Shown here in pieces: positions 52,079-58,555 of a stretch of 64,000 nucleotides of DNA. The first letter of the stretch is position 1; each line of letters begins with the position of its first letter. The notes beneath the pieces were generated by a model. That model saw only the letters and a list, made by a program, of their open reading frames with translations, had not been told where the DNA came from and made no database searches. A program made the position numbers and the translations under genes. Source of the stretch: Saccostrea echinata (taxonomy: Eukaryota); assembly GCF_033153115.1 (NCBI RefSeq), contig NW_026889805.1:14074001-14138000 (forward strand), in the 5' to 3' direction.

Positions 52079-53256
52079 TTTTTAACAGGAAGTGATGGAA
52101 ATGTGAGAAAAGAGAAAAGGGAAAGGGAAATTCTGATTAAAATGCAAATAACTAAAAATATTCATTTGATTTATCGAATCAAAACCATGTTAACAAATAA
52201 CAAAATTGTATGGAAGTAATTTTTTTACACTACAATATTGACTTTAAAATTGCTAAAATTCATTTCGGAATTCTATATATTAACCGTTGAAAGTCCAATA
52301 GTGATTTCTACTTTCATTTTTAGTGATTTATTTTCACATCGTGACTGAAGACAGATTAATGAGGAAAATTGTTGTTAAAGGTTAGGGATTTTATAAAATA
52401 ACTCTAATTTACAGGAATTATCACAAGCAAAAGTTGCCAAGACTTCTGTTCTTGTTTATTAAAGAGAACAGGAAGCCCAAAGTAAGAGCAGAGGTGTACA
52501 GGAGTAGAGATCCATATAGGTTTATAAATGTAGGTGTATAGGTTTAATGGGACGCCCATTTGAATTGGCGGGCTGTGCCACTGGGAGGGGGGCTGGCAGA
52601 TTTTTGAAATAAATATTCTGTCTTTGAAATTTTAGAAAATAAATTGTCTCCTGCACTGGCAGCCTACTGGTAAGAAAATAACAACCTGACCTTTACCTGT
52701 TTACTGGTGCTATAATAAATGCTACAATACCCCCCCCCCCCCCCCCAAATAAGAGAGGTTTTGATTTTGTGCTTAACCATCTGCCCTTCAAAAAGAGAGT
52801 TTTGAGTTTGGGACCCCCCCTCCCCCTGGATCAAATGATATGTACATGTATACGTATTACTGATGGTGCATGCCTATTTTAATTTATTAAACTAAAATAA
52901 ATGTACACTTTTCTTTCTTGTTTTTTTAAAATACAATTTGCCTTTCAATTTTTATGCTGTTAGGCCATCTTTAAAAATTTGTTTTGTTGCCCTGTCTCCC
53001 GACCGACTGGCTAAAATTGCCCGACTCAGAACTTTTTTTAACCTCCAGGAAGCAATTATTTTTTTTTATGCATTCCATAAATTTTATTTTGAAAATTTTG
53101 CATTGATGTTGAAATTTTCTAGGGGAAAAAAATCCCCACCTACCTACCGACCCAAATTTTTCATCCTGGGTCGGGAGAGGGCAAGCAAACATTATTTTAA
53201 AGTTGGCCTTACAGATTTATTGTTATATTTAACAGGTAAAACAATTGTTTGTTGAG
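52079..53256. promoter_or_regulatory. Probable bidirectional promoter/5' UTR region shared by PGRMC (-) and the GH3 gene (+)
   Basis: Divergent ATGs are ~1.18 kb apart. ETS-like ACAGGAAG(T) motifs at ~52085 and ~52468. An acceptor AACAG at 53231-53235 just before the GH3 ATG implies an upstream non-coding exon. Confidence 0.5.
52963..53208. mobile_element. PIF/Harbinger-type MITE (TTA TSD)
   Basis: TTA|GGCCATCTTTAAAA...TTTTAAAGTTGGCC|TTA. Confidence 0.8.
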
Positions 53257-56200: not shown

Positions 56201-58555
56201 TATAGAATGAATGGTAGTGTCTATGTTTTGCTATTGGAAACCGAAAATATGTGTCTGATAAAATGTAACATGTATGTAACATAGATTCTGTGAAAGTCTC
56301 ATTAAATTTCATTCATTGTTATAAGAGGAGTTTTGCATAAGAGATGGGTACCCCAGCCAGATGGACAGAAAAACCCATCACTATACATCCCCCACTTTTC
56401 AAGATAGGGGTATAATTAGTGATATTGATGTTGATTTCAAAAAAAATATGATGTAATCCAATGATATGTTACACATTAAAAATGTTTTCAGTAATATTAT
56501 AAGTGTCTCTACTATACAGATTTAAATTAAATCTCTTTATAGAAAGGGTCAGTTTTTGAATGTACGAGGGGAGAAGACATCAGAGTCCCTCTTTTACCAA
56601 GCCCTGACAGAAGCAGAGTCTGCCTGGTTTCCACAGAAACTTCTGAACTATTGTTGTGTAGAGAGTCTCTTGATTGATGACAAAGGTAAAAAAAAAATCT
56701 TTAAAAGACTCATTTAGTTATTTGCCACCATTATTTTGGTAGCATCTAGTATTAAGAGGAAATGCTGACCGTAAAAAAAAAAACATAGACGTAGTTTTGA
56801 AGTTTGTAGAAATTGCATGACTTACATGCCATGAGAGCATTTCAAACCAATATATTATAAAAGTGTGTGAGAAACTTCTCCTACCTGATAATTATCAAAA
56901 CTATGAATTTTAGGGTGTTGTAGGAAGATAAACATATGTTAATGTCTTTTCATTGCTTAATGGATCATTGCTTAAACACTTTCATTAAAAGTTGGCTTTG
57001 TTAAAAGATAGGGGAATGAATAAAATATGTAGCAAAATCCAGTCCTGATACATGCAGATTATCCAAGTTCCTAATTTTTTTTTCCAGGAAGCAGTTATGC
57101 CCCTTTCTATCATCTGTTCCTGGAACTTGAAGATGATTCCAAACTTTTAACACAAAAACAAAGAGAAGTGGTAATTATTTATTTTTTTTAATAAAAAAAT
57201 TATTTTGTTAATCAAAACAGTGAATGTATTATCAGTACTGTTAGATAATTTTTGTAAAATGGCATTGAAATACAGCAAAGCATCACAAACACAGCTCATA
57301 TGTATCAAAAGTGCAAGTACCAAAAAAGTGCAAAACCATCAAAATAAATGCAGTTTTCTAAAATCTTTACTCCTGGACATCAAGGGGTCAAACTGTTGGC
57401 TTGATTATAACAAACAATTAGCCTTTTACCAAAATTGTAAAAATCAGGGTCAGGGTTCTGGAGTTAGGGTGGGGCTCAATTGATTATATAGCAAAAATGA
57501 ATTAATTCTTTGTAAACCTTATTCTCTCCTCCTGTATATTAAGCAGAAAAACTAAGTGCTAGGTTATGATGAGCAAGGGTGCCTCTTCCAACATTGTGAA
57601 TTGCATGGCCACTGGTTTAGGGGCTCTGGTGTTAGGATGGGTCTCAATTGATTAGGTAGTGAAAATACATTAATGTTTTGAAAATCCTCTTGTTTGCTCC
57701 CAGACATCTAGGAGAGAAACAGTACAAAGATGTAATGAGCAAGGGCATCTTTTCAAATTTGTGAAATTCTGGTTCTAGACAGGGCTCTATTAATCCTTGT
57801 AGTGAAATTTGTACTCAACTGATAGAAGTTATTCCCTTTTGCTATTATCCTATAATAGTTAATCATTGTAATATAATTGATAGGTCAGTTGAATACAAGA
57901 ATTTACAAGAATTTATAATGTATATTAAAGAGTGCTTTTATGGTTTCTAATGGTCAGGTAGACTTGTGAATAATAAATGAATAATAAATGAGACAAAATG
58001 TCTTATCTTTATACATTCTTTAACATGTTTAAAGATCTAAAGAGGCCAGTGTGAGAGGGAATGGGTTTACTTTAAGTGCTCAAGCAATTATTTTTTGTTT
58101 AATTAATTTGCATGGTGATAGTGACAATTGGGAGTGTTTATAGCATTGACAAGTACAGGCAAGTAAATAGATCTACTTTATGATTTGTTACTGAGTACTA
58201 GATTAACTATTTTGTTGATCTAGACTATCCTATTTTTCTTGCTTTTGGGCAACATATCTTCATTTATTCTCAGGTGACGTTAAGGTCATTGGGCCTGTTG
58301 TTGTCAGTTCTGCTTGATTATTTTCAGGTTGACAAAGAATTGTGTTCTCGATCCTACGTGTACAAGTCATTTAGGGATAAAGGCAGCATTCAGCCAGTCA
58401 GAGTTCATCAAGTTAAATCTGGGACATTTGAAGAACTGCGTAAATTTACCATCAACAACACACAGGCTTCAGCTAATCAGTACAAAGTCCCTAGGGTCCT
58501 AAAAACTAAGGAGACAGTCAATGTTCTCCTTCAGAATGTCTTTGATAATAAATAA
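53257..58555 (+). CDS. GHDC: GH3 domain-containing protein (GHDC-like; GH3 acyl-acid amido synthetase / ANL adenylating fold), ~639 aa
   Basis: Exons: 53257-53380 (start exon, less certain), 54384-55597, 55749-55876, 56543-56685, 57088-57170, 58328-58555; 1920 nt, in frame. GH3 motifs: NAETQYGRKYGF, FAVTSGTSGKS, SPLYAASEG, FFEFIP, YELVITNASGLCRYRFGD, LNVRGEKT, GTFEEL, NQYKVPRVL. Confidence 0.9.
53686..53892. mobile_element. Tc1/mariner-type MITE (TA TSD)
   Basis: TA|CTGTAAACCAACTATTATTCGC...GCAAATAAAAGTTGGTTTACAG|TA. Confidence 0.85.
55970..56415 (-). mobile_element. Degenerate Helentron-type element (termini like 8878-9442)
   Basis: ACTAGAGGTACTGTG...GAGCTCACA start, two ~160-bp internal repeats, terminal CCCC...GGGGTATAA hairpin. 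Confidence 0.45.

Follow-up and report, generated by a model that had tools for sequence, protein, structure and literature searches.

GH3 enzymes act by a two-step mechanism (PMC11253546; papers are cited here by PMC number). The motifs that define them were taken from PMC12493201, which also describes OlsH, a GH3 protein that makes N-acyl ornithine from a free fatty acid and ATP and so provides a precedent for amino-lipid synthesis. Motif I is required for activity (PMC2665095, PMC12493201), and loss of its serine, S115, abolishes the activity of OlsH (PMC12493201); motif I has been described as a phosphate-binding element, with the critical lysine lying in the C-terminal domain (PMC10510592). 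GHDC is the animal member of this family. We found no function for this conserved animal gene, and no report of its activity or of a pseudoenzyme state, among the best-ranked matches of broad literature searches that covered few subscription papers. Here we examine the GHDC gene in a 64,000-nucleotide stretch of the oyster Saccostrea echinata genome (assembly GCF_033153115.1, contig NW_026889805.1, positions 14,074,001 to 14,138,000, forward strand; hereafter the window, whose numbering we use). A preliminary description of this DNA had proposed an apparently intact, membrane-anchored GH3 acyl-amido synthetase, head-to-head with PGRMC and next to ETFDH. We find that the oyster gene keeps most of the GH3 active site, whereas the mammalian GHDC sequences that we compared do not.

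Results

Six coding exons on the plus strand, joined by their coordinates, gave a frame of 639 amino acids with no internal stops and with GT..AG at five of five introns. The product is identical to RefSeq XP_061164020.1 (P0001 in our set), annotated as Saccostrea echinata GH3 domain-containing protein-like isoform X1, and it has one match across the oyster genome. The gene is the oyster's ordinary single-copy GHDC orthologue, already annotated, and the oyster copy is typical of the family. In a Pfam profile scan the model scored 237 bits for GH3, 60.7 for GH3_M and 56.6 for GH3_C, each above the cut-off of 23.6; the profile check that had been proposed was thus positive for all three domains. 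All five introns were bridged by contigs in four of four sequencing runs (at most three samples, from two studies). These runs are not recorded as RNA and were taken as such by guess, their contigs being spliced at GT..AG, and contig depth from them cannot rank or correlate genes.

Coding of isoform X1 begins at ATG 53257 in an internal exon of 145 nucleotides (53236..53380), whose joint to 54384 was present in all four runs. The large exon that follows (54384..55597) encodes helices H2 and H3, the GH3 N-terminal domain (Pfam GH3, E 3.7e-70), motif I (54776-54802) and motif II (55448-55465). Motif III, GLCRYRFGD (55794-55820), lies in the exon at 55749..55876, which matches Pfam GH3_M. The remaining exons encode the hinge region with E499-K500 (56543..56685), the C-terminal domain (57088..57170) and, in the last coding exon (58328..58555, Pfam GH3_C), QYKVPR at 58478-58495; contigs support these joints and extend to about 59130. 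The spliced protein of the preliminary description, with TSGTSGKS at residue 173, YAASEG at 397, RYRFGD at 465 and QYKVPR at 615, is therefore borne out by the exon model, the RefSeq identity and the contig joints.

The AlphaFold model of oyster GHDC (predicted local distance difference test score 91) has, by structure comparison, the two-domain ANL fold of GH3 type with its hinge. For the best-matching plant GH3 chains, Foldseek gave template modelling scores of 0.72-0.79. In the VIA structural comparison plant GH3 proteins had Z scores of 40-42, and the next family, the PaaK-type coenzyme A (CoA) ligases, had Z scores of about 19-20. The likeness to plant GH3 structures that had been put forward for checking was therefore found, at 24-28% identity.

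We compared the oyster protein with 86 aligned non-mammalian homologues, from corals to fish. All of the motifs defined in PMC12493201 are present in oyster GHDC: the motif I core (S/T)SGT(S/T)G at T173-G178, motif II, Y-x-x-(S/T)-E, at Y397-E401, and motif III, RYRxGD, at R465-D470, the latter two being found in 86 of 86. Thirteen residues were invariant in the whole set (S174, G175, T176, G178, Y397, E401, R465, R467, G469, D470, E499, K500 and R620), and S174 matches S115 of OlsH. K617 aligns with the lysine of plant QYKVPR and was kept in 82 of 86; following PMC10510592, we take this residue of the KxPR element as the putative A10-type catalytic lysine.

A query with a shark protein's C-terminal domain retrieved divergent vertebrate proteins, one of which was GHDC of Tupaia. 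Our mammalian set consists of 120 listed sequences out of 146 relatives of Tupaia GHDC and includes partial isoforms and Logan rows; every species-labelled row is placental or marsupial (P0311, P0441-P0559). None of the 120 listed carries the pattern of motif I, II or III. S174 and G175 fall in gaps in all 120, glycine replaces E401 in 113, and neither K500 nor K617 belongs to the common residues. Motif I or the glutamate of motif II was thus kept in 0 of 120 mammalian sequences listed, versus 82-86 of 86 non-mammalian ones. Five vertebrate-like sequences (P0301, P0303, P0308, P0309 and P0312) showed partial losses. Motif loss was stepwise in divergent vertebrate sequences and complete in mammals, and mammalian GHDC is probably a pseudoenzyme. 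This split between intact and degenerate GHDC was not found in print in the literature searched.

In a tree built quickly from 65 selected rows, without plants, the oyster gene fell among oysters and scallops, inside the molluscs. The animal clade that holds vertebrate GHDC (46 rows) had a Shimodaira-Hasegawa-like approximate likelihood ratio test (SH-aLRT) value of 98, and the most divergent vertebrate rows sat on long branches. The tree places a tardigrade row oddly near the molluscs, and its deep animal nodes are weak. Mya has two GHDC copies.

Residues on the side of the substrate pocket (F193, G197, G237-P243, E286-F289 and L403) are common to animals and alga-like sequences and are not those of Clostridia-like homologues. 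E286 was invariant, N288 was found in 83 of 86, and P225, at a position that is K or S in plants, in 84 of 86. Relative to the pocket of GH3.6 (PMC9894192, mapped by eye), the oyster residues are smaller and more polar. Sharing of this kind, from animals to alga-like sequences, is unlike an expanding detoxification family, and the proposed conjugation of dietary algal acids is not supported, given one gene match and pocket-side residues shared as far as the alga-like sequences.

The N-terminal part has three helices. H1, hydrophobic and optional, is encoded by the 145-nucleotide exon (about 53281-53340), while H2 (about 54386-54430) and H3 (about 54464-54553) are encoded by the large exon. Of the 86 aligned homologues, 66 possess the H2 region, and in 62 of them its hydropathy reached at least 1.5 on the Kyte-Doolittle scale; a second helix upstream of H2 occurred in only 16. 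H3 is a long helix in the AlphaFold model, and plant structures start to align at about residue 77-88; its peak hydropathy was 0.82 in the oyster and was at least 1.5 in 0 of 78 homologues. Of the two to three hydrophobic N-terminal segments described earlier, H2 stands as a family-wide membrane helix, H1 is optional, and the third segment is not transmembrane. The oyster helices have Kyte-Doolittle values of 1.7-1.9 with a basic C-terminal flank (+3); the family-wide charge bias is weak. Alga-like metagenome homologues, whose lineage was assigned by eye, have an N-terminal helix and linker similar to those of GHDC, and Clostridia-like homologues begin at H3.

Some further rows deserve mention. 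Diatom- or haptophyte-like homologues (L006-L010, L027-L029, L037, L041 and L045) share with GHDC the layout of the N-terminus and the residues on the pocket side; their N-termini are basic, rich in Ala and Gly, and resemble mitochondrial anchors by eye. Clam-type rows (P0019, P0020, P0023-P0026 and P0012-P0014, from Mercenaria, Mactra, Mya, Potamilus and relatives) share a start methionine. Clostridia-like GH3 proteins (L011-L026, L030, L032 and L048; Atlas rows 2 and 4) are about 33% identical and have a different pocket, and the start of the L032 frame resembles an adenylation-domain fragment. Neighbours of the Clostridia-like loci, read by eye from the listed open reading frames (ORFs; an antiporter, purine genes and HtpG among them), included no common neighbour and gave no clue to substrate. 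The Atlas also holds a Bacillota cluster of 92 members in which GH3 is fused to glycosyltransferase family 2, a possible lead to a lipid pathway.

At the 5' end, an upstream exon ending at 52380 (3' part 52350..52380, 5' end unmapped) was spliced to 53236 in two of the four runs, X3 and X5, so the "first exon" of the preliminary description is really the internal 145-nucleotide exon. The distance of about 1.2 kb between the GHDC and PGRMC start codons holds for ATG 53257 (1179 bp) and does not hold for the start of the gene. Isoform X2 (605 amino acids; RefSeq XP_061164021.1, P0123) starts at ATG 52359, 281 bp from the PGRMC ATG. Joining 52380 to 54384, with the 145-nucleotide exon skipped, puts this ATG in frame and gives a product identical to X2. 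With the exon included, the same ATG opens an upstream ORF of 13 codons, and its stop, TGA 53253-53255, ends one base ahead of the X1 start. Short X2 models likewise exist in S. cucullata, O. edulis and C. gigas. The skip joint was not found among the 15 listed of 19 contig joints, so X2 rests on RefSeq models in the four oysters; a search of the Atlas with the X2 N-terminus gave no usable match. The exon (see window 52359-52380 and 53236-53257) toggles the first ATG between start codon and upstream ORF, and the anchor from one helix to two.

Gene models confirmed the head-to-head arrangement with PGRMC. PGRMC lies on the minus strand, with coding segments at 52078-51775, 50779-50624 and 49857-49745, and its product is identical to XP_061163961.1 (P0142). 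Contigs support exon 1 (51775..52078), exon 2 (50624..50779) and exon 3 (47216..49857), the last of which continues beyond the coding end into a 3' untranslated region of about 2.5 kb (47216-49744). GHDC is not next to ETFDH, as had been stated, because PGRMC separates them: the last coding exon of ETFDH, an open frame on the plus strand at 42768..42980 (Pfam Fer4_ETF_QO, E 2.5e-25), is convergent with PGRMC, which makes ETFDH the second neighbour.

The GHDC exon ending at 52380, whose contig begins at about 52350, and the PGRMC ATG at 52078 confine both transcription starts to the interval 52079..52349, at most about 270 bp, unless the transcripts overlap. This makes a shared promoter more likely than was previously thought, and a short promoter of this kind likely couples transcription of the two genes; with divergent starts less than 1 kb apart, they count as a bidirectional pair. 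We tried an ETS-like 8-mer as a candidate element of the promoter gap and rejected it: the window held 4 matches versus 1.77 expected, and 12 of 100 shuffles reached 4.

We assessed conservation of the pair by a proxy, a shared scaffold plus the distance between accession numbers, which reports proximity without orientation and is noisy, since the true neighbours GHDC and PGRMC are 59 apart here. The distance was 1 in S. cucullata and Pecten, 5 in C. angulata, 11 in Ylistrum, 12 in O. edulis and, on a 280-kb scaffold of Mizuhopecten, 2 (GenBank) or 12 (RefSeq); in one further case both genes were on a contig of 22,277 bases. Intermediate values were found in Lottia (29; ESP00069 and ESP00098) and Pinctada (81). 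The genes were far apart on the same chromosome in Owenia (243), Mya (379), Gigantopelta (664) and Mercenaria (733), and on different scaffolds in Potamilus, Bulinus, Candidula and Lingula. By this proxy the pair is close only in oysters and scallops, six of them besides S. echinata, and is separated in clams, a gastropod and an annelid, rather than deeply conserved, and the restriction to one lineage that had been named as telling against a functional pairing applies in part. The pattern fits an old shared chromosome on which adjacency became fixed in oysters and scallops. When the sequences flanking 78 metagenome GH3 loci were searched for PGRMC, there was no match at E 1 and one at E 4.9; most of the animal-like loci were too short to be informative.

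Elsewhere in the neighbourhood, the PGRMC-GHDC pair is flanked on both sides (43700-47200 and 60200-61700) by a high-copy interspersed repeat in tandem, its units measuring about 160-320 bp. Plus-strand exons at 6355-16398 match Pfam DUF5917 and KELAA and belong to what we take to be a FAM160/FHIP gene. About 11.6 kb beyond the GHDC stop and convergent with GHDC, an exon at 6182-6388 (minus strand) of our sequence L080 resembles that of a PP2C phosphatase.

Discussion

It is likely, judging from the conserved motifs and the modelled fold, that oyster GHDC is an active ligase. That this single orthologue would be a CoA-independent, membrane-tethered enzyme that links a lipophilic acid of endogenous origin with an amino acid or similar amine, with OlsH as its closest functional precedent, is a more specific prediction from sequence, model and analogy, to which we give an even chance. 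In such an enzyme Mg-ATP would be bound by motifs I-III, as in plant GH3 and OlsH, the acid would then be adenylated, the C-terminal domain would turn on its hinge, and the amine would displace AMP to yield the amide. H2 would act as a signal anchor, with H3 at the membrane surface and the catalytic domain facing the cytosol from an internal membrane; including the 145-nucleotide exon would add H1 to form a hairpin and keep the catalytic domain on the same side. Mammalian GHDC is reportedly located in the endoplasmic reticulum (ER). An anchor in the mitochondrial outer membrane, or a luminal orientation, may apply instead.

A number of observations weigh against the ligase we propose. The terminal lysine of motif I is replaced by Ser181 in the oyster alignment and is present in only 12 of 86 homologues; it is kept in JAR1 (K109), GH3.12 (K104), OlsH (K123) and the alga-like and Clostridia-like homologues. 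Nearby K179, kept in just 38 of 86, might stand in for it. The substitution makes a canonical GH3 active site less probable and leaves membership in GHDC untouched, so of the "apparently intact" enzyme the motifs, the frame and expression stand and the motif I lysine does not. The counts out of 86 come from a set whose members were chosen for their similarity to the oyster protein, which biases it towards intact motifs; among the sequences compared, the contrast with mammals is absolute despite that bias. In a strict pocket test, 4 of 9 columns mapped from GH3.6 reached 85% identity versus 27% of all columns, which leaves one conserved substrate suggestive only, and a figure of 10 of 16 includes columns chosen after conservation was seen. 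No substrate is readable from the sequence or structure data. The charge flanking H2 was greater on the C side in 34 of 66 homologues and on the N side in 22 of 66, a weak bias that makes the predicted topology and organelle tentative. Clam orthologues begin after H2, at the methionine just before H3, and have no transmembrane helix, so the membrane anchor may be dispensable; its absence there is either a true loss or a shared truncation of gene models.

Other explanations share much of this evidence. GHDC could adenylate an acid and pass it to a different acceptor, such as CoA, a lipid head group, a polyamine or a protein; its next structural neighbours after plant GH3 are, after all, PaaK-type acyl-CoA ligases, and its pocket-side residues E286, N288 and P225 are unlike those of plants. 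We think this unlikely, because the fold comes twice as near to that of GH3 as it does to that of CoA ligases and the characterised GH3 enzymes, plant and bacterial, take an amino acid (PMC11253546, PMC12493201). The gene persists in mammals despite the lack of motif I, E401, K500 and K617, which argues for a role needing no catalysis. One could suppose that oyster GHDC, too, is a membrane protein that binds nucleotides or lipids with weak catalysis or none, the mammalian state being the end of the same trend; the motif I lysine is lost in most animals, and vertebrate-like representatives show partial losses. This appears quite unlikely to us: the thirteen invariant residues of the nucleotide site and hinge would be difficult to account for if there were no ATP chemistry, and retention of the motif I lysine in scattered animals (Lingula, Tubulanus, Apostichopus, Watersipora and Bulinus) indicates that the position is plastic.

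The preliminary description favoured a co-regulated oxidation-plus-conjugation module in the ER, in which oxidation by PGRMC-supported cytochrome P450 would be followed by conjugation of dietary or foreign acids by GHDC. The starts within about 270 bp, the accessions 1-12 apart on the same scaffold in six oysters or scallops, the further pair on a single contig and the N-terminal membrane helices of both proteins are all compatible with such a module. We nevertheless hold it to be very improbable. In four species the accessions are 243-733 apart, in four more the genes are on different scaffolds, and GHDC is present as a single copy. Bidirectional genes make up 6-32% of all genes across seven animals, and functional linkage was rejected as the force retaining them (PMC3403606); because head-to-head pairs are so common, a pair restricted to oysters and scallops lends the module no support. 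The passages and listings covered of papers naming both GHDC and PGRMC, in one paper gene lists only, contained no link between them. The closeness of the two genes is likely a matter of oyster and scallop gene order, not of a common pathway.

Extending the CoA-independent ligase to the family, eukaryotic GHDC would be an ancient membrane-anchored synthetase of amino lipids (N-acyl amino acids) corresponding to bacterial OlsH; it would be active in algae, invertebrates and fish and would have become a pseudoenzyme by the time of mammals, with the oyster exon switching between a one-helix and a two-helix anchor and perhaps between organelles. We offer this only tentatively and would sooner doubt it than rely on it. 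The intact-versus-degenerate split is the main new point, since the gene and family were already annotated, and it shows where to assay. If mammalian GHDC is catalytically dead, work in mouse or human cells, whether by assay or by knockout, would not reveal the ancestral reaction, and the enzyme to screen would be an orthologue from oyster, zebrafish, coral or diatom; invertebrate, fish or algal orthologues are probably where the GHDC reaction can be found. The oyster gene is one of many equally usable orthologues, and its link to PGRMC adds little. A product, if found, would reveal a new way in which eukaryotes make N-acyl amino acids or amino lipids.

Among known systems, the GHDC proteins of other animals (PF03321, PF23571, PF23572 and PF25146) are the nearest, the oyster gene being a direct orthologue with the same N-terminal helix and domain order. 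It differs from the mammalian members, which are without motif I, the motif II glutamate, K500 and K617, and its extra helix H1, encoded by a skippable exon, occurs in a minority of lineages. The pairing with PGRMC is unremarkable among bidirectional gene pairs with starts less than 1 kb apart and seems limited to oysters and scallops. Plant GH3 enzymes (JAR1/GH3.11, GH3.12/PBS3, GH3.5, GH3.6, OsGH3.8 and VvGH3-1) have the same fold, and motifs I-III, the hinge and the C-terminal KxPR are common to them and the oyster protein. In contrast to these, the oyster has N-terminal membrane helices, a serine for the motif I lysine and one copy in place of a gene family, and the positions of GH3.6 Tyr134, Leu175, Tyr178, Val231 and Ile312 are occupied by smaller, more polar residues (by eye, from group II alignments). 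OlsH (Sinac_1599) of Singulisphaera acidiphila, compared only through the motifs printed in PMC12493201, is like oyster GHDC a non-plant GH3 protein with the same essential motif I serine; unlike it, OlsH is predicted to be soluble, has 526 amino acids, lies in an operon with an O-acyltransferase and has kept the motif I lysine.

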